A stretch of 64,000 nucleotides of DNA from Candidatus Omnitrophota bacterium (GTDB taxonomy: Bacteria; Omnitrophota; Gorgyraeia; JAHIPI01), in the NCBI GenBank assembly GCA_016783745.1, contig JADHVZ010000006.1, forward strand, positions 3,397-67,396. Reading direction: 5' to 3'. The number at the start of each line of letters is the position of its first letter. The first letter of the stretch is position 1. Below, piece by piece: positions 3,380 to 26,746 of the stretch. Made by a program: the position numbers and the translations under genes. The notes under the pieces are model-generated. The model saw only the letters and a program-made list of their open reading frames with translations. It was not told where the DNA came from and searched no databases.

Positions 3380-5374
3380 TTACGTCTTCTTCTTTATTGA
3401 CTTCTCCTTCTTATATTTTTTAGTCAGCCTGGTCAGCTGGTCGCGATATACAGCGGCTCTCTCGAATTCCAGATTGCGCGCCGCAAGCTCCATATTGTGT
3501 TCCAGTTCAGAGATAAGCTCGTTAAATTCGTGCTGATCCTCGTTCTCACCCGCAACTTGAGCTACAAACTCCTTCGCTTTGGAATAAGCCTCTATGCCTT
3601 CTCTTATAGCTTTTTTAATGGAAGTGGGCTTGATATTGTTCTTTTTGTTGAATTCAAGCTGCTTCTCTCTCCTCCTGCGCGTCTCATCGATCGTCTTCCT
3701 CATCGAACCTGTTATCCTATCCGCATATAAGATGACCTGGCCGTTCACGTTTCTGGCAGCCCTTCCCGCTAGCTGCGTTAAAGATGTCTGGCTTCGCAGG
3801 AAACCTTCCTTATCAGCATCCAGCACCGCTACTAAAGAGACCTCAGGCAGGTCTATGCCTTCCCTCAAAAGATTTATTCCTACTATGCAGTCGAATTTCT
3901 TAAGACGGAGGTCTCTTATGATCTCTACCCTTTCTATGACATCGATCTCCGAATGGAGGTATTTTACGCGGATCCCCACTTCCTTAAGATATGCTGCCAG
4001 GTCCTCGGACATCCTCTTTGTCAGGGTATTGACGATGACTCTCTCTTTTACCTCCGCCCTCTTCCGCACCTCTTCAATAAGGTCGTCTATCTCATTTTCG
4101 CTGGGTTTTATGATGATATCCGGGTCAAGTAATCCGGTAGGCCTTATGATCTGCTCCGCGACAACAGCGCTTTTGCCAAGTTCATAGGGTGCTGGCGTAG
4201 CTGAGGCAAACACGGTATGCGAGGTGATTTTTTCAAATTCATCGGATTTTAACGGGCGGTTGTCCAGCGCTGAGGGTAATCTGAAACCATACTCCACAAG
4301 CGTAAGCTTGCGGGAACGATCCCCCTCATACATGCCGCGTACCTGCGGAACCGTTACGTGCGACTCGTCTATTATCACAAGAAGATCTTTCGGGAAATAA
4401 TCGATCAGACAATACGGTTTTGACCCCGGAGCCCTGCCTGAAAGATGACGGGAATAGTTTTCAATACCTGAGCAATACCCCAGCTCTTTCAGCATATCTA
4501 TATCATAATTAGTCCTGGACTCAAGCCTCTGGGCCTCAAGAAGCTTATTATTTTCTCTTAATTCCTTCAGCCTGCCGGCGAGCTCTTCTTTTATAGTCAC
4601 TATTGCTTTATTTATCTTATCTTCGGTAGTGACAAAGTGCTTTGCCGGATATATAGCAACCTTATTGATCTCGTTTATAGTCTTACCGGTAAGCGGGTCT
4701 ATCTCTCTAAGCCGTGATATCACATCATCCGATAGCTCCACCCTGATGGCCTTGTTCTCATAAGCCGGAAATATCTCTATCACCTCGCCGCGCGCCCTGA
4801 AGGTACCCCTCGCGAAATCGTAATCATTTCTGGAATAATGGATGTTTACCAGCTTTTTCATTATCTCATCCCGGGGTGTTTTCTCGCCCTTCTCCAGAAA
4901 TACAAGAAGCTCCGCATAGTCTTCGGGCGAACCCAAACCGTATATACAGGATACGCTGGCAACGATTATCACATCGCGCCTTGACATAAGCGAGCTTGTA
5001 GCTGAAAGCCTCAGCTTGTCGATTTCCTTGTTTATGGAAGCGTCTTTCTCAATATAGGTATCGGTGCGGGGAACATACGCCTCAGGCTGGTAATAATCAT
5101 AATAGCTTACAAAATACTCTACGGCGTTCTCTTGAAAAAGCTCTTTGAATTCACTGTAAAGCTGGGCGGCCAGAGTCTTGTTGTGAGAGATGACCAGAGT
5201 CGGCCTGTTGAGGTTATTTATGACGTGGGCAAGCGAAAAAGTCTTTCCCGAACCCGTAACGCCAAGAAGCGTTTGATAGCGGTTTCCTTTTGAGATACTG
5301 TCAGTGAGGGCCTTGATGGCTTTAGGCTGGTCGCCTCTCGGCCTTAAGTCTGTAGTGAGCTTGAATTTGTTCAT
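3380..5374 (-). CDS. uvrB: Excinuclease ABC subunit B
   Basis: 664 aa, [32 protein letters not shown] (Walker A), helicase motifs, C-terminal UvrB/UvrC-interaction coiled coil. Confidence 0.95.
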
Positions 5375-14578: not shown

Positions 14579-15799
14579 TTACGCGCCTTTCATAAAGCTA
14601 TCCATGAGCTGCCAGCCGCTCGGAAACGTCAGCCGGGAAGCCTTTCCGGATTTCTCACTGAAGACCATGGTATTGTCAGCTTCGACGCCGGCACCGCATA
14701 TGACAAAAGGAATCGGGTCAGAGGTATGGGTACCTATCGATATCGGAGTCGAGTGGTCAGGAAGGAGCATCATTTTGACATCGTCCCTGCCTTTAAAGTA
14801 CTTCAATGCGGTCCCTACTATGTGTTTATCAAAGTTTTCGATTGCCGTTATCTTGGCGCGTATATCCTTGTTGTGGCCGGCCTCATCCGTTGCTTCCACG
14901 TGTACGAATACAAAATCATTATTATCGAGCGCCGCCATGGCGTAGTCAGCCTTTCCCTGATAATTCGTATCGTAGTATCCTGTCGCGCCCGGCACATCTA
15001 TGACCTCAAGCCCTATAAGCTTGCCTATGCCGTTTACGAGGTTGACTGCTGAGACTATAGCCCCCTTCACACCGTATTTTTCCTCAAACATGGGAAGCCT
15101 CGGCTTTGTACCCTGGCCCCAGAGCCATACCATGCTGGCGGGGTTTTCCTTAAGATCCAGCCTGACCCTATTGATGTCCTGCTTCTCCAGAACAGCCTTT
15201 GAATCATTCATCAGTTTTATGAGGAAATCAGCTCCCTTACCCTTAGGAAGATTCTTGTCTACCCTCTGGCCTACTATATCGTGCGGCGGCATGTAAGATA
15301 TCTTGCTAAGATCCGCATCCTTGCCTGAAGATTTAAAATGCCTGCCGTTTTTTATCACCATAAGATGCCGGTAACTTATTCCCGGATAAAATTTCACATC
15401 ACCCTTGCCCAGCTTCTTATCGATGGCCCTTATAAGTATGTCAGCTTCCTTGGTGGTTATGTGTCCCGAGCTGTAATCGGTCAGGATACCTTTATCCTCA
15501 GTTATAAGATTGCACCTGAAGGCCACATCGTCATCACCAAGACCTATATCCATATTTGCCGCTTCAAGCGGGCCCCTGCCCGAATAATACTTTAGAGGGT
15601 CATAACCGATGATGGAAAGGTTGGCAACATCGCTTGCCGGGGTCATGCCTTTCGGGATCACGGAAACCATGCCCACTTTACCGTTCTTGGCCATATAAGT
15701 CATGTTCGGTACTTTGGAGCATTCAAGCGGTGTCCTCCCGTCTAGCTCTTCTAAAGGATAATCCCCCATTCCGTCAGGAACCATAACTATGTATTTCAT
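14579..15799 (-). CDS. Cofactor-independent phosphoglycerate mutase (archaeal ApgM/COG3635) family protein; from operon context likely the non-orthologous homoserine kinase
   Basis: 406 aa, MKYIVMVPDGMGDYP... metalloenzyme superfamily N-terminus; sits between thrC and lysC in a hom-thrC-X-...-lysC array lacking a GHMP-type thrB. Confidence 0.75.
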   Translation of the reverse strand: MKYIVMVPDGMGDYPLEELDGRTPLECSKVPNMTYMAKNGKVGMVSVIPKGMTPASDVANLSIIGYDPLKYYSGRGPLEAANMDIGLGDDDVAFRCNLITEDKGILTDYSSGHITTKEADILIRAIDKKLGKGDVKFYPGISYRHLMVIKNGRHFKSSGKDADLSKISYMPPHDIVGQRVDKNLPKGKGADFLIKLMNDSKAVLEKQDINRVRLDLKENPASMVWLWGQGTKPRLPMFEEKYGVKGAIVSAVNLVNGIGKLIGLEVIDVPGATGYYDTNYQGKADYAMAALDNNDFVFVHVEATDEAGHNKDIRAKITAIENFDKHIVGTALKYFKGRDDVKMMLLPDHSTPISIGTHTSDPIPFVICGAGVEADNTMVFSEKSGKASRLTFPSGWQLMDSFMKGA

Positions 15800-15811
15800 T
15801 TTTTCTCCTCG

Positions 15812-16870
15812 TTAATAACCTATTTCTTTCAAGACAGCGCTCATATCGTTCTCGAGAACTATTGGCTTATCTACGCTGGCAATAGCCCTATCAGGGTCTT
15901 TTAAGCCGTGCCCCGTTACAATACAGACTATCTTTGACTTCTTCTTAAAATAGCCTTTTTTCGAATATTTAAGCAGTCCCGCGACTGAAGCTGCCGAAGC
16001 GGGCTCCACAAACACGCCTTCTTTTTGAGCCAGGATCTTATACGCGTTAAGGATCTCGTCATCGGAAACCATATCTATGGCCCCTCCCGATTCATCCCTC
16101 GCGGCTACAGCCTGTTCCCAGCTGGCGGGGTTGCCTATCTTTATGGCGGTCGCTATTGTCTGGGGCTTTTTTACAATATGCCCCTTCACGATGGGAGCCG
16201 CGCCTTCCGCCTGAAACCCTACCATTTTCGGGAGACTTTTTATGATGCCTTTTTCTTTATATTCTTTATAACCTTTCCAGTACGCCGTGATATTACCCGC
16301 GTTTCCTACAGGAATAACATGATAATCCGGAGCTTTGCCGCCAAAGGCATCGCATATCTCAAAGGCCCCTGTCTTTTGGCCCTCGATCCTGAAAGGATTG
16401 AGCGAATTGACAAGTGTTATAGGATATTTATCCGTGATCTCACGCACAAGCATCAGGGCATCGTCAAAGTTGCCCTTAATAGCAATGACTTGAGCTCCGT
16501 GAATAAGCGCCTGAGCCAATTTGCCCAGAGCTATAGAGCCTTCCGGTATTAAAACCACACATTTCATTCCGGCGCGCGCTGCGTACGCGGAGGCAGAAGC
16601 GGAGGTATTGCCGGTAGAGGCGCACATAACCGCCTTTGAGCCTTCCTCCAGGGCCTTGCTGACAGCCATGGTCATACCCCTGTCCTTGAATGAACCTGTC
16701 GGATTCAGCCCCTCATATTTTACGTAAAGCTCAACATCGCCGCCGGCCAGCTCATCCAGATATGGTGTTCTGATAAGCGGCGTATCGCCCTCATTAAGAG
16801 TTATTACGGGCGTATCTTTGCCTACCGGTAAATATTTCTTATATCTTTCTATGACCCCCTTATACATCAT
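15812..16870 (-). CDS. thrC: Threonine synthase (short form)
   Basis: 352 aa; PLP-lysine motif TGSFKDRGM. Confidence 0.9.
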
Positions 16871-16873
16871 ACA

Positions 16874-18169
16874 TCACCTCATCTCCATTCTGATGGCTAC
16901 GGGTTTTCCGCTGATCGAGTTAAGCTTGTTTATCTGACCGAGCGCCTTTCTTAGATCCATCTCTATTGCCTCATGGGTCAGCATGACTATAGGAACCGCG
17001 TGCTCTTTATTTCTCTCTTTCTGCGAAACGCTGGAAATGCTTATTTTATATTTAGCGAGAATGCCTGATATGCCGGCCAGGACGCCGGGTTTATCCATCG
17101 CCATGAACCTTATGTAGTAACGGCTTTTTACTCTTCCGATACCCTTTATTCCGCTTACACCCGAATCAAAATTCATCTCGGGCATTATCATCTTCTTTCC
17201 GGCCGCGACAGCTTCCGCGATATCTGTTACATCCGATATGATCGCGCTTGAAGTCGCCTTCTCGCCGGCGCCTTCACCGTAAAGAAGGCTCTCCCCTATC
17301 ATGTCCCCTTTTATATAGATGGCATTTTGCGCGCCTCTGACTCCGGCTAAAAGATGTTTTGTGGTAAGCAAAGTGGGGTGCACTCTTACGTCAAGTTTGC
17401 CCTCATCCTTTTTCGCGATAGCCAGAAGTTTAATGGAATATCCGAGCTCCTTGGCGTATTGTATGTCCTGTAATTCCACGCTCTGAATGCCTTCTGTAAA
17501 AATATCTCCGACATCTACATACCTTCCGAATCCTAATAACGATAAAATGGCGAGCTTATGCGCCGAATCCATACCGTTTATATCCAGAGTCGGGTTACTT
17601 TCAGCTATTCCCAGCCCTTTGGCTTTTTTTAGCGCGCCATTAAATGTCTCGCCTTCTTCCTCCATCTTAGTCAGAATATAATTTGAAGTACCGTTTATGA
17701 TGCCGTATACCGCCTGGATCCTGTTCGCCACAAAATCACCGCTTAACGCCTTTACCACAGGTATGCCGCCGCCTACACTTGCCTCGAACCTTACCGTCAC
17801 ACCGCATTTTTTCGCTACTTTGAATATCTCTTTGCCGCATGCCGCCAGGAGAGCCTTATTGGCTGTGACCACATGTTTCCCGCTTTCCAGCGCCTTTATC
17901 ACAAATTCCTTCGCGGGATGTATGCCCCCGATGAGTTCGATGACAATATCAATATTGGGGTCATTTAAGATATCGCCGGCTTTTTTAGTGAGTTTTTTAC
18001 GGGAGACCTTGACCGGCCTTTTTGTTCTAAGGTCCTTATCGGCTATACGGACGAGCTCAAGCTCAAGACCCCTTTTTTTCTTTATAAATAACCTCTTGCC
18101 GGCCAGCGCCTTGACTACACCTGTTCCGATAGTGCCGAATCCTATAAGGGCGATATTGACTTTCTTCAT
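16874..18169 (-). CDS. hom: Homoserine dehydrogenase (with C-terminal ACT domain)
   Basis: 431 aa; N-terminal Rossmann GFGTIGTGV, catalytic domain and C-terminal ACT. Confidence 0.9.
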   Translation of the reverse strand: MKKVNIALIGFGTIGTGVVKALAGKRLFIKKKRGLELELVRIADKDLRTKRPVKVSRKKLTKKAGDILNDPNIDIVIELIGGIHPAKEFVIKALESGKHVVTANKALLAACGKEIFKVAKKCGVTVRFEASVGGGIPVVKALSGDFVANRIQAVYGIINGTSNYILTKMEEEGETFNGALKKAKGLGIAESNPTLDINGMDSAHKLAILSLLGFGRYVDVGDIFTEGIQSVELQDIQYAKELGYSIKLLAIAKKDEGKLDVRVHPTLLTTKHLLAGVRGAQNAIYIKGDMIGESLLYGEGAGEKATSSAIISDVTDIAEAVAAGKKMIMPEMNFDSGVSGIKGIGRVKSRYYIRFMAMDKPGVLAGISGILAKYKISISSVSQKERNKEHAVPIVMLTHEAIEMDLRKALGQINKLNSISGKPVAIRMEMR

Positions 18170-18208
18170 ATCAAACCTTTCGTATTAGGAAAAATCGTGG
18201 GACACAAC

Positions 18209-18345
18209 GTCACCAGGTCACCCGTCACCAGGTCACCAAAATCCTATGTGAAATATCTTGGGTTTCAAAGTCACCCGTCACCAGGTCACAAGGGGTTTTC
18301 TTATCCTTTTCTCGTGTGACCTTGTGACGTGTGACCTTGTGACCC
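18209..18345. repeat. REP-like dyad element, 'gtcacc' family: tandem gtcacc(a/c)ggtcacc words plus a palindrome gtcacccgtcaccaggtcacaagg-[loop ggttttcttatccttttctc]-gtgtgaccttgtgacgtgtgaccttgtgac
   Basis: Seen directly; related copy with the same loop word (ggggttttcttat) at 28907-28970. Confidence 0.8.
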
Positions 18346-18362
18346 TTGTATTTTCCAAGAAC

Positions 18363-18441
18363 TGGTCGGGGGGACCAGATTCGAACTGGCGACCTCTTGC
18401 ACCCCAAGCAAGCGCGCTAAACCAAACTGCGCCACCCCCCG
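18363..18441 (-). tRNA. tRNA-Pro (anticodon GGG), genomically encoded CCA, C1-G72 pair and A73 discriminator
   Basis: Minus-strand cloverleaf traced by hand: acceptor CGGGGGG/CCCCCCG, D-stem GCGC, anticodon stem CTTGC/GCAAG with loop TTGGGGT, T-arm GCCAG-TTCGAAT-CTGGT, then ACCA. Confidence 0.8.
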
Positions 18442-18445
18442 GTTT

Positions 18446-19444
18446 TTATAAATGTTCGATCTTCGGAGACCTCATCATAAGGTCTTTTACTACGTCCTTT
18501 GGGGATTTATCTTTATATATTACGTTATAGATCTCGCGCGTGATCGGCATATCCACGCCGATTTTCTGCGAGAGCCGGTATGCCGATTCCGTAGTCGTCA
18601 CACCCTCTACTACCATCTCAGTCTCTTCCACTATTGCTTTGGCCCGCTTGCCCCTGCCAAGCATCTCACCAAACCATCTATTCCTGCTGTGCGGGCTTAT
18701 ACATGTTGTTATAAGATCGCCCATACCGCTTAATCCGGCGAATGTCTCCCGCCTTGCTCCCATAGCAACTCCCAGGCGCGTGATCTCCGCAAGGCCTCTG
18801 GTTAAAATAGCGGCTTTTGTGTTCGCGCCGAACCCCAGACTATCTGATATTCCCGCGGCAATGGCAATTATATTCTTTAGAGCGCCCCCTAATTCGACAC
18901 CCGTTAAATCATCGCTGGAATATACCCTCAGCTTATCTCCGGCAAGAACATTCTGCACTTCCCTGGCCAGATTCAAGCTCCTGGAAGATGCCACTATTGT
19001 CGCGGGCATGCCCTTAGCCACCTCGATCGCTATGCTGGGGCCTGATATTGCCGCGATCTTCCTATCTTTGCCAAGGACATCCTCTATCAGCTCTGACATC
19101 CTCATCAATGTCCTACCTTCAATGCCCTTAGCGGCAGAGACCAGAATAGACGCATCTGCCAGAACACCCTTAAGGCGCGGCAGTATGTCACGCAAATATT
19201 TTGACGGGATAGCCAGGATAACTATGCCTGCTCCGCTTAAGGCCGGCTTTAAAGACGGTGTTATATTGACTTCGGCGGGGATAGCAATACCTTTCAGGAA
19301 TTTTGTGTTTTGGCGGGTCTCTGATATGGATCTTATATAATCCTCAAAAACACCCCACAAGGATACATCAACGCCTTTTTCCGATAGACGTATCGCTAGA
19401 GCCGTCCCCCATCCCCCGTCACCTAATATGCATACTTTATTCAT
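18446..19444 (-). CDS. gpsA: NAD(P)H-dependent glycerol-3-phosphate dehydrogenase
   Basis: 332 aa; MNKVCILGDGGWGTALA Rossmann N-terminus. Confidence 0.9.
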   Translation of the reverse strand: MNKVCILGDGGWGTALAIRLSEKGVDVSLWGVFEDYIRSISETRQNTKFLKGIAIPAEVNITPSLKPALSGAGIVILAIPSKYLRDILPRLKGVLADASILVSAAKGIEGRTLMRMSELIEDVLGKDRKIAAISGPSIAIEVAKGMPATIVASSRSLNLAREVQNVLAGDKLRVYSSDDLTGVELGGALKNIIAIAAGISDSLGFGANTKAAILTRGLAEITRLGVAMGARRETFAGLSGMGDLITTCISPHSRNRWFGEMLGRGKRAKAIVEETEMVVEGVTTTESAYRLSQKIGVDMPITREIYNVIYKDKSPKDVVKDLMMRSPKIEHL

Positions 19445-19508
19445 ATTACTACGCTAATTTTATGCTATAAATTTACCATGTAATATTATATTAGTCAAGG
19501 GGGAAAGT

Positions 19509-19540
19509 AAAAAGTCCCCGGTTTTATCCGGGGACTTTTT
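19509..19540. terminator. Bidirectional intrinsic terminator: AAAAA-gtccccgg-ttttat-ccggggac-TTTTT
   Basis: 8-bp GC-rich stem flanked by A5 and T5; 35 nt downstream of the minus-strand ORF ending at 19575. Confidence 0.7.
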
Positions 19541-19574
19541 CGGAGGTACAGGGGTATGGATGAGTCCGAATCCC

Positions 19575-20063
19575 TTAAGAGATCTCTTTGGCAACAGCAA
19601 CAACCGCTAAGTCCATTTTAAAGGAATGAACGAATGCTATGCTGTACACATATTGCCCAACTATGGCGTAACATGTGCCTGCGGTCTTACATAGAAGTGT
19701 ATCCTCTCCTGTGAAGGAGCTGTGCCTTCTTAGTATATGAAAGTGCTTCTTTTTCCATGTATTGCTTGCTTCTTTAAGTTCTCTAAGGCTTTGCATGTCC
19801 TTGGGGCTTTTCAATAAGACCTTCTTCCTTACAAAATAAGTACATCTCCTCTCGATACGCGCCAATATGCCGTCTTTAGAGACAAGCTCTTTTATGTACA
19901 AGCGACGCTTCTTATTGCCTTTTTGAGTGAGATTTCTGTACAATATTTCTCTCATTTTAAGTATCCGCCTTCGCGGCCTCCATAAGTACTTAAAACTTTT
20001 TAAAGCTCTTGAATTAATTGGTAAAAAAAAATTCGCACTTTCTGTACCATATAAGTATACCAC
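19575..20063 (-). CDS. Hypothetical highly basic protein (162 aa, K/R-rich) in an AT-rich insert; true start may be internal (MREIL..)
   Basis: Longest ORF in a ~650-bp AT-rich (~38% GC) segment between plsY and gpsA; followed by a clean terminator; no confident family assignment. Confidence 0.35.
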   Translation of the reverse strand: MVYLYGTESANFFLPINSRALKSFKYLWRPRRRILKMREILYRNLTQKGNKKRRLYIKELVSKDGILARIERRCTYFVRKKVLLKSPKDMQSLRELKEASNTWKKKHFHILRRHSSFTGEDTLLCKTAGTCYAIVGQYVYSIAFVHSFKMDLAVVAVAKEIS

Positions 20064-20108
20064 AAGAAGGGGGCAGCGTCAATGGACCAAATCTTACTTT
20101 TTTAACTC

Positions 20109-20729
20109 TTAATTCTTATGGGCGCCTATCTTGTTTTCATTACCGGCAAGCAGCCTTTTTATGTTACTCTTATGCTTGTAACTTATTATTATACAGATAG
20201 TTATGGCAAGTAGTACATTTTCTAGCCTATCGCCCATTAGAGCCGCTACTACGGGCAATGCCACCACTAAATGGAGTGACGCTAAAGATACATATTTGGT
20301 AAAAGCTAATGTTATGAAAAAGATTATGACCGCGGCTATCATGGCCTTCGGCATGAGTATTCCCAGTACCCCACAGCTTGTCGCGACACCTTTACCGCCT
20401 TTGAATTTTAAAAAAAAGCTCCAGTTATGGCCGCATACAGCACATAGTCCAAGCAAGGTGCGATACATCTCTATAGTGATGATCGCATTGTCATTATAGA
20501 AATAAGTTGCGATAAAAGTAACGGCTAGCACCCCCTTCAATATATCCACTATCAAGGTTATCAGCGCAGGCAGCTTTCCTACGGTCCTCAGCACATTTGT
20601 TGCCCCCACATTGCCGCTGCCCGCTTTGCGGACATCTATGCCTTTGATCTTTCCCATTAAATAGCTGGTCGGGATCGATCCTAATATGTATGCGGAAACC
20701 ATACCGAGTAGCGCGTATATTATGGCCAT
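20109..20729 (-). CDS. plsY: Glycerol-3-phosphate acyltransferase (acyl-phosphate dependent)
   Basis: 206 aa, 5 TM; GSGNVGATNVLR signature. Confidence 0.9.
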   Translation of the reverse strand: MAIIYALLGMVSAYILGSIPTSYLMGKIKGIDVRKAGSGNVGATNVLRTVGKLPALITLIVDILKGVLAVTFIATYFYNDNAIITIEMYRTLLGLCAVCGHNWSFFLKFKGGKGVATSCGVLGILMPKAMIAAVIIFFITLAFTKYVSLASLHLVVALPVVAALMGDRLENVLLAITICIIISYKHKSNIKRLLAGNENKIGAHKN

Positions 20730-20741
20730 TTCTTCTCCTGC

Positions 20742-22073
20742 TTATTTTTTATTCTTCTTCCGTTTTATTCTTATCCTTATCGGCACACCTGTAAGCCCCA
20801 GTTCATTCCTTAAAATATTTTTGATGCACTCTATATAATCACCTGAGACATTGCGCGGGTCATTGACCGATACCTCAAAAGTAGGCGGGGCCCCATCCTC
20901 CTGCTTCATGCCCTCTATCTTTATTAATTTACCGGAACGCACAAGCGGCACCTTATCGCTCATCTCTATTAGCTGCCGGATCCGCTTTATTTCATCGTCG
21001 GGAAACCTGGCCGTGATGTTTCTGAAGACCAGGCTTATAAGGGAGAATACATCCTCTAAGTTAAGGCCTGTTTTACAGGAGGTAAACAATACCGGTATGC
21101 CCCTGAGATATTTCATCTTTCTTACAAGCGCGTCCTGGTATTTAGCCATCTCAAATCCTGATATAAGGTCCCACTTATTGACGATGAGAAAAGAACCCTT
21201 CCCTGCCTCTTCCACAGAGCTTAGTATGCTCATATCGTCTCTTGTCAGCCCGTCATAAGCGTCTATCATGATCAAACTTATATCGCTTCGATCTATACTT
21301 TCTTTCGCCCTTAACATCCCGTAAACATCTACGGCGTCGTGTACCTTTCTTTTGTGGCGCATACCGGCCGTATCGACAATAATATAGTCGGTGTTCTGTC
21401 TCTTAAGATGTATGTCTATAGAATCCCTGGTAGTACCCGGTTCCTCGTGGACGATCACCCTCTCCTCATTTATTATCTTATTCACGAATGATGATTTTCC
21501 GACATTCGGCCTGCCGACTATCGCCACTCTTATGCCGGTCTCCGCGGGGCTTTCGTCGATCGACTGAGGCTTGATCCTTCCCGCGATGCTCTCGAGCAGC
21601 GTCGATATCCCGATATTATGGATCGCGGAAACAGGGTAAAGCTCGCCTATGCCGAAGGAATAAAATTCGCTTACATTCTCCTCCAATTTCTCATTATCCA
21701 CTTTATTCACGACGAGCACGATGTCCCCGCCGGATCTTCTTAAGACGGACAATATCTCCTCGTCCAGATTCGTTATTCCGTCGGTCACATCGCAGACAAA
21801 AAGTATTATATCAGCGCTTTCCAGCGCTATCTCGATCTGCCTTTTGATCATGCCGGAAATATGGTCGACGCGCCCAAAATCCAGTCCGCCGGTATCCACC
21901 AGCTCAAAGCTATATCCTTCCTTTTTAACTAAAGCGCTCACCCTGTCCCTGGTGGTGCCGGATTTCTTTTCGGTTATCGAGTGCCGCCGTCCGACGATCC
22001 TGTTAAACAGCGTCGATTTACCGACGTTAGGCCTTCCTATGATCGCGATCCTACTTATGCTTGACTGTTTCAT
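20742..22073 (-). CDS. der: Ribosome-associated GTPase Der/EngA (tandem GTPase domains + KH-like domain)
   Basis: 443 aa; two G domains (GRPNVGKST each with DTAG/NKxD). Confidence 0.9.
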   Translation of the reverse strand: MKQSSISRIAIIGRPNVGKSTLFNRIVGRRHSITEKKSGTTRDRVSALVKKEGYSFELVDTGGLDFGRVDHISGMIKRQIEIALESADIILFVCDVTDGITNLDEEILSVLRRSGGDIVLVVNKVDNEKLEENVSEFYSFGIGELYPVSAIHNIGISTLLESIAGRIKPQSIDESPAETGIRVAIVGRPNVGKSSFVNKIINEERVIVHEEPGTTRDSIDIHLKRQNTDYIIVDTAGMRHKRKVHDAVDVYGMLRAKESIDRSDISLIMIDAYDGLTRDDMSILSSVEEAGKGSFLIVNKWDLISGFEMAKYQDALVRKMKYLRGIPVLFTSCKTGLNLEDVFSLISLVFRNITARFPDDEIKRIRQLIEMSDKVPLVRSGKLIKIEGMKQEDGAPPTFEVSVNDPRNVSGDYIECIKNILRNELGLTGVPIRIRIKRKKNKK

Positions 22074-22611
22074 TTAACATCCTGTTTGTACGCACCAGAT
22101 AATAGATGCCTGAGGCAACCGTGAACAAGGCCGCCGCGCTCCATATGATATTAGAATAATTGAACCTTAAAAGAACGGCCAGGATCGTCATCATCTGCAA
22201 AAAAGTAGTGAATTTTCCGATCAGGCTTGGTTTGAATTCTATGGACCCGAACATCATCAATATCGCTGAAGCTCCGGTAAGTATGAATAAGTCTCTTGTT
22301 AAAACTATTATGAGGACCCAGGGCGGTATCCTGAGATGGCCGGGCACGGTGGATACAAATGTAAGGGTTATAAAGCTTACTACGATCAGGAATTTGTCGG
22401 CGAGCGGATCTAAAATGGCTCCCAGCCGACTCGCCTGTCCGTACCGGCGCGCTATATATCCGTCCACTGCGTCGGTAATAATAGCCGAGATAAAAATAGC
22501 GATAGGCAGGCCGGCCAGCACAGCATTATCCGCGCGGTAATACAGCATGGATAATACAAATAACGGCGTCAGCAACAACCTTATAAAAGAGAATTTATTG
22601 GCAAGATTCAT
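22051..22611 (-). CDS. pgsA: CDP-diacylglycerol--glycerol-3-phosphate 3-phosphatidyltransferase (CDP-alcohol phosphatidyltransferase family)
   Basis: 186 aa; DAVDGYIARRYGQASRLGAILDPLADK = D-G-x2-A-R-x8-G-x3-D-x3-D motif. Confidence 0.85.
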   Translation of the reverse strand: MNLANKFSFIRLLLTPLFVLSMLYYRADNAVLAGLPIAIFISAIITDAVDGYIARRYGQASRLGAILDPLADKFLIVVSFITLTFVSTVPGHLRIPPWVLIIVLTRDLFILTGASAILMMFGSIEFKPSLIGKFTTFLQMMTILAVLLRFNYSNIIWSAAALFTVASGIYYLVRTNRMLNETVKHK

Positions 22612-22655
22612 AATTTGAAGCTACTATATCACATGGCTATATCAAAGTCAATCAT

Positions 22656-22767
22656 TTGGGGACGTGTGAGAAGGGGACGGTCCAAAAGGGGACAGGTCAC
22701 TTAGATAGTATGGTGTGTCCCCTTTTGACACGTCCCCAAATGACACGTCCCCTTCTCACACGTCCCC
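22656..22767. repeat. REP-like dyad element, 'ggggacg' family: ggggacgtgtgagaaggggacggtccaaaaggggacaggtcac-[loop]-gtgtccccttttgacacgtccccaaatgacacgtccccttctcacacgtcccc
   Basis: ~110-bp imperfect palindrome, each arm carrying three ggggac words; abuts the stop codon of the truncated ABC ATPase. Confidence 0.8.
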
Positions 22768-22773
22768 TTTTTG

Positions 22774-23280
22774 CTACGGTTCATCCAGAAGAAGGATGTC
22801 CGCCTTCTGGATCAATGAAGCTGATATCATGATCTTCTGGTGTTCCCCGGAGCTCAGCGTGCCCATATCCCGCTCTTTAAAACGGCTCATATGAACGGCT
22901 TCCAGGGCCTCATCGACTTCGCGCTCATCTTCCGCGGTCACCATGGAAAAAGGATTGAGGTACGGATACTTGCTCAAAAGGATAAATTCATGAACTTTAA
23001 AAGGGTACGCTCTCGCGTCAGGCTGGGGAACATAACTCATCTCTTTGGCGAGGTCTTTCTGCTTAAAATGCCTTACTTCGGTTCCATTGATCTTTATACC
23101 GCCGGTCCCGCCGGTAAGGATCCTTATCATATTCTTTAGAAGCGTGGTCTTTCCCGCCCCGTTAGGGCCGACTATTGTCAGATATTCGCCCTTCTTCACG
23201 GAAAATCCTACGGAGCGCAGGATATCGCCGTTGCCGTAAGAGTATGAGAAATTTTCTACTTCTATAGCGAATTTTTCCAT
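22774..23280 (-). pseudogene. ABC transporter ATP-binding protein (iron-siderophore/cobalamin FepC/BtuD-like), C-terminally truncated: reading frame stops immediately after Walker B (..ILLLDEP*)
   Basis: 168 aa with Walker A GPNGAGKTT, Q-loop, signature LSSGEHQK, Walker B ILLLDEP then TAG; lacks D-loop/H-loop (~60-80 aa); stop lies 7 bp from palindromic element 22656-22767. Confidence 0.55.
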
Positions 23281-23286
23281 GTGGGA

Positions 23287-24144
23287 TCAGAGGACCTGCT
23301 CGATATCTCTCAATATCAAGGTAAAGCGGGGGCCGGGGATGGCTATGTAATCGCCGTTCAAAACGTGAATATCTCCGCTTTTAACGGCATTTACCTTATC
23401 GATAGTTTTCCATTCCTCAATTAATCCAGGCTTGTCCTCGTCAGGGATATGCGGCGCCATCTCCAGTATTATATCGGGATTCATCCTCATTATAGACTCT
23501 ACGGACAAGGTGGGATAACTTATATCATTATCGGAAGATACGTTTTCACAGCCCAGGATATCCAAAAGGTCGCTATAGAAGGTCTCTTTCCCCGCTACAT
23601 ATACATTTTCAAGCGAGCCTTTGTTTCTACTGACCGCTATCATTATCCGTTTAGCCGTTCTAAGCTCGGCTCTTTCCCGGAATGACTTTATACTATCCCG
23701 TTTATTATTCACTATCTCCCGCGCTTTATTTTTCACGCCGCATTTTAAGCCTATTTCTTCTATCGTAGTCAGTATACTGTCGACAGTTTGCGTGTTTACC
23801 GTAAAATGATCGATTTCCGTGGCATCAAAAAGTTTTTTTATCTCATCGTCATATTCGGACGGCGAGATCACCAGGTCCGGCTTCAGGAATATAATGGATT
23901 CGAAGTTAGTGTTCAGATATCCCCCTACCCTGAACTTATCATTCACATCCGGAGGATAACTGCAGAAGTCAGTCACTCCCACAACTTTATCCCCGAGTCC
24001 CAGCTCATAAAGTATCTCGGTTATGCTGGGAGACAAAGACACTATACGGTTATAGGTCATTTTTTGATCTTGCGCAAGGCAGGGCCGATAAAGAAATGTC
24101 AGGCAAAAAATTAGAATAAGCGTTTTTTTCATAAAAAATCTCAT
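23287..24144 (-). CDS. ABC transporter periplasmic substrate-binding protein, BtuF/FecB-like (cobalamin/iron-siderophore class)
   Basis: 285 aa with signal peptide; RIVSLSPSITEILYELGLGDKVVGVTDFCSYPP typical of BtuF-type binding proteins. Confidence 0.8.
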   Translation of the reverse strand: MRFFMKKTLILIFCLTFLYRPCLAQDQKMTYNRIVSLSPSITEILYELGLGDKVVGVTDFCSYPPDVNDKFRVGGYLNTNFESIIFLKPDLVISPSEYDDEIKKLFDATEIDHFTVNTQTVDSILTTIEEIGLKCGVKNKAREIVNNKRDSIKSFRERAELRTAKRIMIAVSRNKGSLENVYVAGKETFYSDLLDILGCENVSSDNDISYPTLSVESIMRMNPDIILEMAPHIPDEDKPGLIEEWKTIDKVNAVKSGDIHVLNGDYIAIPGPRFTLILRDIEQVL

Positions 24145-24253
24145 AGCTTCAACTCTTCTTTCGATAAATAATTATACCATAAAATGAGGTTAAAACGTAA
24201 CTTTTCCTCCGCTGTCTGCACTACGTTGATACCCGGTATATCTTTAAAAACGG

Positions 24254-24365
24254 GAGGGGACAGACACTTTTTTTGAAGAGTTGGGACAGACACTTTTTGT
24301 AGCTATATAAGTAACCTCAAAAAGTGTCTGTCCCTGACAACGCCGCAAAAAAAGTGTCTGTCCCC
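24254..24365. repeat. REP-like dyad element, 'gggacagacac' family: two gggacagacacttttt words on each arm around loop tagctatataagtaacctc
   Basis: Left arm ggggacagacactttttttgaagagttgggacagacacttttt; right arm is its reverse complement with a different inter-word spacer. Confidence 0.85.
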
Positions 24366-24371
24366 TTCATG

Positions 24372-24950
24372 CTATTTAAGCTTCTGGATGCGCCAGGGAG
24401 GCCACCAAATGAACATGGCCCTTCCTATAACATTCTCTTGCGGCACAAACCCCCAATACCGGGAGTCCTTGGAGCTGGCGCTGTTATCGCCCAGGACAAA
24501 ATAATCGTCTTCGGGGACATCGACAGGCCAACCCGACCTTCCGTAATAACCTTTATTATAATAGTGTATATTTTCGACCTCCGGCGGGCCATCCAGAGAT
24601 TTTCCGTTTATGATTATATCTCCGTTAGAGATCTCGACCGCTTCTCCGCCTTCGCCGACCAGCCGTTTTATAAAATCCTTCTTCTCATCCTCGGGATATT
24701 TAAAGACGATAATGTCTCCTCTCATGGGCTTCCTTAATCCCGGCAGCTTGATATCTGTAAACGGGATCTTAGGCCCATAAAGAAGTTTATTGACCATTAT
24801 CTTATCGCCTTCTTTTAATGTGGGCCTCATCGACCCGGAAGGGATCCTGAAAGCCTGAATAAAAAAAGCCCTTATGAATAACGCGAGAACAACCGCTATT
24901 ACAATTGATTCGACCCATTCCCTGATTATAGCTTTAGTGCTATGTCTCAT
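24372..24950 (-). CDS. lepB: Signal peptidase I (start placed at internal ATG 24950, directly after lepA stop)
   Basis: Catalytic Ser box IPSGSMRPTL and Lys box; the longer ORF (to 25082) would overlap lepA by 130 nt; MRHSTKAII start gives classic lepA-lepB coupling. Confidence 0.8.
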   Translation of the reverse strand: MRHSTKAIIREWVESIVIAVVLALFIRAFFIQAFRIPSGSMRPTLKEGDKIMVNKLLYGPKIPFTDIKLPGLRKPMRGDIIVFKYPEDEKKDFIKRLVGEGGEAVEISNGDIIINGKSLDGPPEVENIHYYNKGYYGRSGWPVDVPEDDYFVLGDNSASSKDSRYWGFVPQENVIGRAMFIWWPPWRIQKLK

Positions 24951-24952
24951 GA

Positions 24953-26746
24953 TCAAGCCTTTAGCGCGGCCATAAAAGCCTTTTGCGGTATTTGGACTTT
25001 TCCGAATTGCTTCATCTTTTTCTTGCCTTCTTTCTGCTTTTCCCAAAGCTTTCTTTTGCGCGTTATGTCCCCGCCGTAACATTTGCCCGTGACATTCTTC
25101 TTTAAGGGCTTGACGGTGGACCTGGCTATTATATTATTGCCTATCGCCGCCTGAATAGCGACTTCTATCATCTGCTTGGGTATCAGTTCCTTTAATTTAT
25201 CGACTATGGCGCGGCCTTTGAACTGGGCTTTTTCCCTGTGTATGATGGATGACATCGCGTCAAAGGGGTCTCCGTTTAAAAGTATATCCAACTTTACCAT
25301 ATCGCTCTCCTGGTAGTCAAGGAATTCGTAGTCAAGCGAACCGTAGCCTCTTGTAAGCGATTTTATCTTATCATAGAAATCCACTATGATCTCGGAAAGG
25401 GGCATTATGTATATCAGCTTGGCCTTCTTTTCTCCTATATACTCTGTGCTTATATACTCGCCCCTTTTGGATTCAGCAAGCTGCATCATGTTTCCTATTG
25501 ATTCGCTCGGGGTGATTATATAAGCGGATACATAAGGCTCTCTTATCTCCTGGATAAGGTTAACCGCCGGCAGCTTGCACGGATTGTCAACCTCTACCAT
25601 CTCGCCGTCTGTTTTCAGGATCCTGTATATTACGCTCGGGGTACTTACGACAAGATTAAGGTCATGCTCCCTCTCCAGTCTTTCCTGTATTATCTCCATA
25701 TGCAAAAGCCCCAGGAATCCGCAGCGGAAGCCGAAACCCAGCGACGCGGAACTCTCAGGCTCATAATGGAATGACGCGTCACTCAATCTTAATTTCGCCA
25801 TGGCGTCTTTTAAGGCCTCATAGTCTTTACTGTTTACGGGATATATCCCGCTAAAGACCATCGGCTGAAGTTTTTTATATCCCGGCAAGGATTCTTTGGC
25901 AGGGTCACTTGCCATGGTTATGGTATCCCCTATCTCTATTTCTCCGGCGTCTCTTATATTGCAAGTGAGATAGCCTACTTCCCCGCAGTACAACTTATCA
26001 ATAGCCTTCGCCTTCGGCGTAAAAACACCTATCTCCAGAACCTCATATTTTTTCTTAGTACTCATCATAAGGATCTCATCGCCCTTGCTTATGGATCCGT
26101 TTTTTATTCTGACATAAATAATAGCGCCTTTGTATGTATCATAGCTTGAATCAAATATCAGCGCCTGCAAAGGATTGGACTCACTCCCGCCGGGAGACGG
26201 GATCCTGTTAATGATCTCTTCGATCACGCTTATCACATTGGTCCCCTCTTTGGCGCTGACAAGAAGTATCTCTTCTCCCTGCCCCTTAAGGAGATTAACG
26301 ATCTGGTGCTTCACTTTTTCAGGCTCAGCGTTTGAAAGGTCTATCTTATTGATGACGGGTATTATAACGATATTATGCTCCATCGCCATATAAAGGTTGG
26401 CCACCGTCTGCGCCTGTATACCCTGAGCGGCATCCACAACCAGTAACGCGCCTTCGCAGGCCGCGACGGATTTTGACACTTCATAAGTAAAATCCACGTG
26501 CCCCGGGGTATCTATGAGATTAAGAATATACTCTTCGCCGGAGGTAGACTTATAGTGAAGCCTGACAGCGCTGGATTTTATGGTGATGCCTCTTTCCCGC
26601 TCGATGTCCATATCATCCAGCATCTGCGCGTGAAACTCCCTCTCCGTTATGGCAAATGTCAATTGCAGTATCCGGTCGGCGAGGGTGGACTTGCCGTGGT
26701 CGATATGCGCGATTATAGAAAAATTTCGAATTTTGCTGATGTCCAT
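24953..26746 (-). CDS. lepA: Elongation factor 4 (LepA)
   Basis: 597 aa; G-domain [21 protein letters not shown]; LepA-specific C-terminal domain. Confidence 0.95.

Follow-up and report, generated by a model that had tools for sequence, protein, structure and literature searches.

A resident gene downstream of plsY in Omnitrophota encodes a small basic protein with a proposed accessory role in type IV filament machinery

Introduction

Does a stretch of AT-rich DNA between two housekeeping genes mark the arrival of a foreign element, or can it belong to a gene that is resident in the lineage? This question is raised by a contig of a Candidatus Omnitrophota bacterium (JADHVZ010000006.1), of which we analysed the 64,000 nucleotides (nt) from position 3,397 to 67,396, hereafter referred to as the window. 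Here, 664 bp separate the genes plsY and gpsA on the minus strand. An earlier evaluation of the letters alone, hereafter the sequence-only reading, took this segment for an insertion into the der-plsY-gpsA neighbourhood, with a Y1 transposase as a weak lead and a horizontally acquired small nucleic-acid-binding protein as an equally conceivable product. Our analysis shows that the segment contains a protein-coding gene, designated gene X, that its location after plsY represents an old, vertically inherited arrangement and that, within the present sampling, the gene is confined to the candidate phylum Omnitrophota. The best explanation overall, to which we assign a moderate probability, is a resident Omnitrophota gene with a proposed role as an accessory of type IV filaments.

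Results

The coding sequence of gene X extends on the minus strand from an ATG at 19955 to a stop codon at 19575 (19575-19955) and specifies a protein of 126 amino acids (aa), as indicated by its homologues, by codon-position conservation and by an exact database match. That is, the product is identical to NCBI entry MBL7070962.1, a "hypothetical protein" from a Candidatus Omnitrophica metagenome-assembled genome (MAG). The sequence-only reading had assigned 162 aa to the open reading frame (ORF), counting from a GTG at 20063 (19575-20063). This longer version is a mechanical ORF only: every homologue begins at the position of the internal ATG 19955, with the sequence MRE(I/L)(L/V)(Y/F)KNLT, the predicted promoter (20082-20054) falls inside the N-terminal extension of the 162-aa ORF, and the NCBI annotation comprises exactly the 126-aa product. 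The protein has a mass of 14.7 kDa and an isoelectric point (pI) of 10.1, with 27 lysine and arginine residues as compared to 11 aspartate and glutamate residues. A high pI is common in the family (median 9.65; above 9 in 85% of the members). Direct reading of the sequence revealed neither a signal peptide nor a hydrophobic or membrane segment. The product of gene X is a soluble, strongly basic, mostly beta protein of an undescribed family. Literature searches returned no description of this family; an EVE-GpsA association in alpha-proteobacteria (PMC7641849) is unrelated to X. Within the 64 kb, gene X is single-copy.

A word-indexed homologue search yielded one relative. By an exhaustive HMMER search, at least 125 representatives of clusters were detected at E ≤ 1e-3, all of them about 105-135 aa long and matched over their full length; 39 reached E ≤ 1e-10. 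Profile searches provided two named relatives, Ca. Omnitrophus magneticus and Ca. Aceula meridiana. Family-wide, the most conserved features are the N-terminal MRE..KNLTS helix and residues E23, Y40, K90 and G93. Gene X is a bona fide protein-coding gene under purifying selection: in comparisons between five close loci, identity is 61-95% at the first two codon positions as compared to 31-47% at the third, synonymous substitutions have reached saturation, and the ratio of non-synonymous to synonymous divergence (pN/pS) amounts to 0.09-0.34. In the nearest relative, X is 65% identical, PlsY 61% and GpsA 74%. The identity of X is thus close to that of its flanks, and therefore X diverged in step with its housekeeping neighbours.

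Two observations concern the composition of the family. Locus L002 (CAYIQH010000057.1) is titled "uncultured Planctomycetia bacterium" and has the same pgsA-der-plsY-X order as the Omnitrophota MAG L003; the X proteins of both are close (pN about 0.08), and the MAG may be misclassified or mis-binned. Furthermore, the proteins P0100 (147 aa) and P0081 (208 aa) consist of half an X-like sequence fused to an unrelated N-terminal part, which looks RNA-ligase-like in one case and resembles a membrane segment in the other. These and other longer members are probably chimeras that arose in assembly or gene calling, and not genuine fusions of domains.

The position of gene X in the genome is remarkably constant on one side. 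In 19 distinct loci, 17 of which are available as DNA sequence (the window counted) and two from gene tables only, plsY is located directly upstream on the same strand at a distance of 115-290 nt. Within the plsY-linked groups, this applies to all 19 loci having upstream sequence, and it includes members that are merely 22-26% identical to the window protein (L005, L007, L023 and L024). The pairing is kept without der nearby (L013, L007) and likewise where gpsA is missing or has been relocated (L005, L007, L023). Downstream of X the gene varies, being gpsA in seven loci, the distant L024 among them, a gene for an exported protein of 1005 aa in L005, pilT in L023, and a small basic ORF starting with MPHxTTRRL in L014, L015, L017, L018 and L019. 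In a neighbour-joining tree, plsY-linked members stand on both sides of the root, which suggests that the linkage between plsY and X is ancestral. As a cause of this linkage we considered a fixed distance between the plsY stop codon and the X promoter and dismissed it: in L003 the stop codon is located ~27 nt further upstream, and the locus still carries the TTAG...A-tract element described below. The small ORF that follows X in one clade deserves a description of its own. It has the start MPH(I/L/T)(T/A)TRRL, measures about 50 aa, is conserved in that clade, is preceded by an AGGAGG ribosome-binding site and matches no family (L014, from about 117 onward; L015, about 1210; L019, 322-480). In L019 it is followed by a CvpA-like membrane protein, a weak Nif3-like match and dnaG.

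Conserved signals around gene X were defined through a promoter-anchored alignment of 18 loci. A promoter scan of the window placed a putative X promoter at 20054-20082 on the minus strand, composed of a -35 hexamer TTGACG (20082-20077), a 17-nt spacer and an extended -10 element TGgTATACT (20062-20054). With 10 of 12 matches plus the TG, it represents a near-consensus promoter of the sigma-70 type, and it is conserved in the 18 loci, whose alignment displays TTGAC, the 17-nt spacer and TG.TATACT, followed by TATA.TG at the presumed start. Transcription would begin near 20047. In 64 kb, this is one of only two perfect matches to the pattern TTGAC-N15-TGnTATAMT, of which about 0.14 would be expected by chance even with up to one mismatch. 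About 15 nt 5' of the -35 hexamer there is an upstream element (20090-20112, minus strand) with the consensus TTAG.ATTTAAAAAAG.TAG, which includes an A-tract (A6 at 20103-20098) whose columns are at least 80% conserved in the 18 loci. By its sequence it resembles an UP element, or it could be the binding site of a factor.

The predicted 5' leader of about 92 nt (19956-20047, minus strand) carries a T-run and a TTTWAAAAAG element in most loci. In the window, the run comprises nine T residues (20031-20023; six to nine across loci), and the element, CTTTAAAAAG at 20005-19996, is a near-palindromic CTTTT(N)AAAAG with a variable centre, which follows the T-run at a constant distance of 24-27 nt. 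Two copies of the TTTWAAAAAG-like motif flank the X promoter in most loci. The Shine-Dalgarno (SD) sequence GGAGG (19981-19977) is separated from the ATG by a hairpin, CCGC-GAAG-GCGG (19976-19965), which recurs in 7/7 of the closest loci with differing stems (CCGC/GCGG, CCGU/ACGG, ACCCAC/GCGGGU; z of -2 to -2.7 each). Folding of this hairpin would restore a normal distance between SD sequence and ATG, which supports ATG 19955 as the start codon; more distant loci have an ordinary SD sequence at normal spacing to the ATG. The leader as a whole is not unusually stable (z = -1.0), and apart from the small hairpin in front of the ATG we do not propose any structured regulatory RNA.

At its 3' end, the unit is bounded by a bidirectional intrinsic terminator (19509-19540, both strands), which was identified by folding and an inverted-repeat search and has the structure A5-GTCCCCGG-loop-CCGGGGAC-T5. 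Its 13-nt arms (19509-19521 and 19528-19540) are 100% complementary, the folding energies on the two strands are -22.2 and -22.1 kcal/mol, and 0/200 shuffled sequences were as stable. The clean bidirectional terminator seen in the sequence-only reading is hence borne out, and a hairpin at the same place is present in nine main-clade loci, with compensatory differences. Downstream of it, the promoter scan assigned gpsA a promoter of its own (TTGACT, 17 nt, TGgTAAATT; 19470-19498, minus strand), which is nearly identical in the nearest relative, L001. As judged from these signals, gene X forms a self-contained transcription unit, and gpsA appears to start from its own promoter. No terminator was found 3' of plsY, so that read-through transcripts from plsY would also end at the X terminator. 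Taken together, the signals in promoter, leader and terminator suggest that X is highly expressed.

How does this fit with the unusual base composition that had drawn attention to the segment? The guanine-plus-cytosine (GC) content of the 664-bp gap (19445-20108) is 39.2% as compared to 46.3% for the 64-kb window, in good agreement with the earlier estimates by eye of ~38% and ~47%. Only 0.9% of the equal-size windows within the stretch have a GC content as low, and the coding part of gene X has the lowest value of all 53 window genes (40.4%; z = -3.5). The GC content deviates at codon positions 1 (GC1, z = -3.2) and 3 (GC3, z = -1.9), and synonymous codon usage deviates as well (z about -3). 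The compositional deviation, for which a quantitative check had been recommended, is thus real. Encoded by genome-average synonymous codons, the amino acids of X would yield 44.1% GC; about 40% of the GC deficit is therefore due to the Lys/Arg-rich amino-acid composition. In relatives, X likewise has a lower GC content than gpsA in 6/6 measured loci and than plsY in 6/8. We therefore infer that the low GC content is a family trait, reflecting a Lys/Arg-rich protein, an AT-rich promoter and leader and a family-wide low GC3, rather than the result of a recent transfer.

The distant members of the family provided a clue to a possible function, as some of them are found in the context of type IV filament genes. 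In L023, which has the order der-plsY-X-pilT, the stop codon of X (1565-1942) overlaps the start of pilT by 4 nt; this pilT scores 410 bits against TIGR01420, the cut-off being 319. In L027 and L028, X (295-663 in L027) and a prepilin gene (KKAG|FTLLE) have 4 nt in common; the prepilin gene matches TIGR02532 above the cut-off and is followed by a PilM-like start. Finally, in L021 (Ca. Aceula meridiana) and L022, X (5001-5357 in each) is situated between gspE/pilB with an MshEN domain and gspF-gspG-..., with two hairpins upstream and a promoter-like site downstream. In the neighbour-joining tree, the pilus- and secretion-linked members form one deep clade together with the plsY-linked L005 and L023. 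Adjacency to type IV filament genes in three architectures is unlikely to have arisen by chance, according to a rough estimate assuming few such genes per genome.

To what extent do family and fold searches inform about the protein itself? Structure prediction by AlphaFold2 (AF2) from two sequences gave a useless model with a predicted local distance difference test score (pLDDT) of 38, and an alignment of 37 sequences was used instead. The resulting model (pLDDT 82.6; predicted template modelling score, pTM, 0.67) has the predicted topology alpha-beta-beta-alpha-beta-beta-beta, with five long strands and two helices (helices at residues 2-10 and 55-61; strands at 16-27, 30-47, 71-78, 85-99 and 102-118). 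For the window protein, Pfam returned no family at E ≤ 1, and NCBIfam, PHROGs and PADLOC no credible family; two PHROG matches (E 0.027 and 0.22), both with families to which no function is assigned, were treated as noise. A Pfam and NCBIfam scan of 67 relatives produced nothing credible either (Pfam at E ≤ 0.1). The description of the product as a K/R-rich protein of no recognisable family therefore holds. A sequence-profile search of the PDB found only egg-lysin at E = 1. When the model was compared to the PDB by Foldseek, the best match had E = 0.012 and template modelling (TM) scores reached at most 0.32. Against BFVD there was one match at E = 6.9e-4, to an uncharacterised phage protein, which is not credible in view of a TM score of only 0.29. 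X shows no internal duplication, as comparison of its N- and C-terminal halves by hhalign gave a probability of 2%.

The genes around X are canonical. On the minus strand, a pgsA-like gene (22051-22611), der (20742-22073) and plsY (20109-20729) precede the gap, and gpsA (18446-19444), tRNA-Pro (18363-18441), hom and thrC follow it. plsY, immediately upstream of X, encodes a PlsY protein of 206 aa (Pfam G3P_acyltransf, 2.2e-54), and gpsA, immediately downstream, a protein of 332 aa with the Pfam domains NAD_Gly3P_dh_N and NAD_Gly3P_dh_C. The pgsA, der and plsY genes overlap or abut and look like a single operon, in which plsY is the last gene. A promoter-like site before pgsA (22651-22623), a one-mismatch copy of the TTGAC-N15-TGnTATAMT pattern, is probably the promoter of this operon. 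The flanking genes (encoding EngA, PlsY and GpsA) and their order thus correspond to the usual der-plsY-gpsA cluster of bacteria, but Omnitrophota have an additional, separately promoted gene after plsY.

Several further features of the surroundings were observed. Between tRNA-Pro and hom, just downstream of tRNA-Pro on the minus strand, there is an array (18202-18345) of GTCAC-containing short repeats, some of them 15 nt apart, with long imperfect inverted repeats, one pair having 28-nt arms of 89% complementarity. The array may form a large hairpin that serves as terminator or insulator, or it may represent an element of the repetitive extragenic palindromic (REP) kind. Another palindromic array (22652-22771), which repeats every 15 nt and is unrelated to the first, separates the pgsA promoter from an ABC-ATPase-like ORF upstream and abuts the promoter-like site 22651-22623; one of its pairs has 27-nt arms of 93% complementarity. 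This array contains four exact copies of GGGGACGTGT, of which one further one-mismatch match occurs in the window, 1.7 being expected. The two arrays bracket the pgsA-der-plsY-X-gpsA-tRNA block. In L004, an ATPase gene (1979-2776) is inserted between gpsA and hom, a place that in the window is occupied by tRNA-Pro and the repeat hairpin only. It resembles the ATPase associated with the XrtA/PEP-CTERM system (TIGR03015, 232 bits, below the model cut-off). About 50 of the 52 long ORFs of the window are on the minus strand, and the GC skew is negative through most of the profiled region (15000-25000); the window probably sits within one replichore with strongly co-oriented genes.

Discussion

Is gene X an insertion after all? 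Its GC content, the lowest of 53 genes, its atypical codon usage and its self-contained layout with own promoter and terminator are what one would look for in a genomic islet that recently split an ancestral plsY-gpsA junction by horizontal transfer. However, we consider such an event very unlikely. X occupies the same site in relatives of 22-65% identity and diverged in step with its flanks, its low GC content is shared by these relatives (6/6 below gpsA) and for about 40% of the deficit attributable to amino acids, no terminal or direct repeats were found around it, no relatives were found in phage, plasmid and IMG/VR collections, and its neighbours in the window are housekeeping genes with no integrase among them. 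The horizontal acquisition considered in the sequence-only reading is thus contradicted by the occurrence of the same gene after plsY in 19 loci, by purifying selection and by missing marks of mobility. Nor is there an interruption by an insert to be seen, as the relatives examined carry X at plsY in all 19 plsY-linked loci. That reading had named conservation in place under purifying selection, combined with a housekeeping annotation, as speaking against its proposal; the former was found, but a housekeeping annotation does not exist. Even less can be said for a Y1 HUH transposase (IS200/IS605 TnpA or RAYT) operating with HFH and a Tyr of YVY, the chance of which we regard as negligible. The protein is of similar size, and both the H-hydrophobic-H triplet (H-F-H, residues 71-73) and the tyrosines (Y-V-Y, residues 102-104) are indeed present in the 126-aa window protein, which is all that favours the idea. 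Their spacing of about 30 residues, instead of about 60, does not fit the Y1 fold, as had already been recognised. PF01797 (Y1_Tnp) matches neither the window protein (E ≤ 1) nor any of 67 relatives (E ≤ 0.1), and HFH and YVY are kept only in the closest clade, the wider family having HYF, HVY, NLT and others in place of the former and variable residues in place of the latter. In the model, the tyrosines are placed in the predicted strand 102-118 and not in a helix, and the predicted topology is not the ferredoxin-like beta-alpha-beta-beta-alpha-beta. X is also single-copy in the window and has no flanking hairpin ends, the only inverted repeat being the terminator, and its position is fixed in 19 loci. 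In sum, X differs from IS200/IS605 TnpA and RAYT in profile, motif conservation, spacing, fold and element ends, and it is syntenic. A spurious ORF within a non-coding RNA that extends from promoter to terminator can be set aside with the same assurance: a strong predicted promoter and a terminator do bracket about 510 nt and no protein family is recognised, but substitutions follow codon positions at low pN/pS, more than 100 representatives share the frame, the start and the length, the alignment yields a confident AF2 model, leader folding is unremarkable, and an Rfam search over 18000-21000 found only the tRNA and no match to the X unit at E ≤ 1. What remains of the initial picture is the lineage-specific, self-contained low-GC gene between plsY and gpsA; the mobile insertion and the Y1 transposase do not remain.

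For the function of this resident gene, we tentatively propose that X serves the machinery of type IV filaments, i.e. of a type IV pilus or a system like the type II secretion system (T2SS), as an accessory or regulatory factor in the cytoplasm, because divergent members are translationally coupled to pilT or a pilin gene or lie between gspE and gspF. X would bind ATPases of the PilB/PilT type, or it would control the expression of pilin. A more far-reaching version, in which X is a new cytoplasmic filament component and represents a phylum-wide, highly expressed family whose fold is unmatched in PDB or BFVD, appears doubtful to us. According to this version, the gene would be kept beside plsY through co-regulation of envelope lipid synthesis and pilus function. 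The Omnitrophota concerned are ultra-small bacteria, which are possibly predatory or host-dependent.

A precedent for such a factor is PilZ. This small, beta-rich protein of the cytoplasm is an accessory of PilB, the ATPase of the type IV pilus, and the pilZ gene adjoins holB and tmk. Like PilZ of Pseudomonas and Xanthomonas (PA2960, XAC1133), X is a soluble, beta-rich protein of similar size (about 118-126 aa), its gene is located among housekeeping genes outside the main pilus cluster, and in some members it adjoins or overlaps pilT, pilB/gspE-type ATPase or pilin genes. However, PF07238 matches neither the window protein nor the 67 relatives, the RxxxR and D/NxSxxG motifs are not in register in the X alignments according to our own inspection, the model, with its five long strands and two helices, differs from a six-strand barrel with a C-terminal helix, and Foldseek against the PDB retrieved no PilZ structure. 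The likeness may thus be a functional analogy at most, and not membership in the PilZ family.

Several points speak against a role at the filament. The 64-kb window contains no pilus or secretion gene around X, and the same is true for the vicinity of X in about 15 loci of the window's clade. The pilus-linked members are only 22-26% identical to the window protein, and their function could have diverged; the tree that groups them is a neighbour-joining tree of short, divergent sequences. In L021 and L022, X need not be co-transcribed with gspE or gspF, because of the hairpins upstream and the promoter-like site downstream. The high expression of X is deduced from signals in the DNA and may not apply. 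No profile or fold of PilZ, LytTR, HU or another known family matched X. Finally, the tight linkage to plsY is accounted for neither by the filament proposal nor by the proposal discussed next.

Only slightly less likely, and not exclusive of the filament proposal, is a second explanation: X could be abundant in the cell and either associate with the nucleoid or bind RNA, without any specific role at the pilus. The small nucleic-acid-binding protein of the sequence-only reading may prove correct. X would then bind AT-rich DNA or AU-rich RNA and autoregulate its synthesis via the A-tract and the CTTTT(N)AAAAG element of the leader, candidate targets being the A-tract and the CTTTTAAAAAG elements as well as the leader RNA. 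Consistent with this, the basic character is conserved family-wide (median pI 9.65), membrane or export signals are missing from the protein, the monocistronic cassette has signals indicative of high expression, and a pair of TTTWAAAAAG-like motifs, the leader copy of which is near-palindromic, flanks the promoter in most loci. Indeed, X resembles nucleoid-associated proteins such as HU/IHF, Fis and H-NS/Lsr2-like proteins in being small, basic and monocistronic and in having a near-consensus promoter, an A-tract upstream element and conserved AT-rich elements around the promoter, but it shares neither sequence nor fold similarity with them. HU/IHF, Fis, H-NS, Lsr2, Hfq, CspA and Veg were all absent from the results of the Pfam, NCBIfam, PDB profile and Foldseek searches, and no known DNA- or RNA-binding family or fold matches X. 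Moreover, the window shows no enrichment of the motif TTTAAAAAG (3 copies versus 1.5 expected), the AT-rich elements could instead be an UP element and a translational enhancer of the ribosomal protein S1 type, and it would be left unexplained why X repeatedly adjoins pilT, pilin and gspE/gspF genes. The lasting place of the gene beside plsY would be explained if X worked together with PlsY or assisted the synthesis of membrane phospholipids, which we deem improbable. X might act as a peripheral, basic, membrane-binding subunit that regulates acyl-phosphate:glycerol-3-phosphate acyltransfer. In support, X comes directly after plsY in 19 distinct loci, the two genes stay together without der in the neighbourhood (L013, L007) and with gpsA relocated or absent (L005, L007, L023), and read-through transcripts from plsY, which is without a terminator, would include X. 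Yet a strong predicted promoter of its own precedes X in all these loci, the members in L021, L022, L027 and L028 are not beside plsY, and no lipid-binding or acyltransferase-related domain was detected in X. To our knowledge, PlsY works without such a subunit in the bacteria that have been studied.

Returning to the filament proposal and the gene as a whole, X is already present in public annotation as an uncharacterised, lineage-specific "hypothetical protein", and such genes are common in candidate phyla. X stands out from them by its fixed site across an uncultured phylum, by promoter-like signals that are among the strongest of the window and by the lack of a detectable family or fold. 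The locus also provides a caution, as low GC content and a self-contained cassette within a conserved cluster mimicked an insertion in the case of a gene that is in fact ancient and has been inherited vertically. If the adjacency to pilT, pilin and gspE/gspF genes reflects function, X would be a new part of the type IV pilus or T2SS systems, which are thought to matter for the lifestyle of Omnitrophota.

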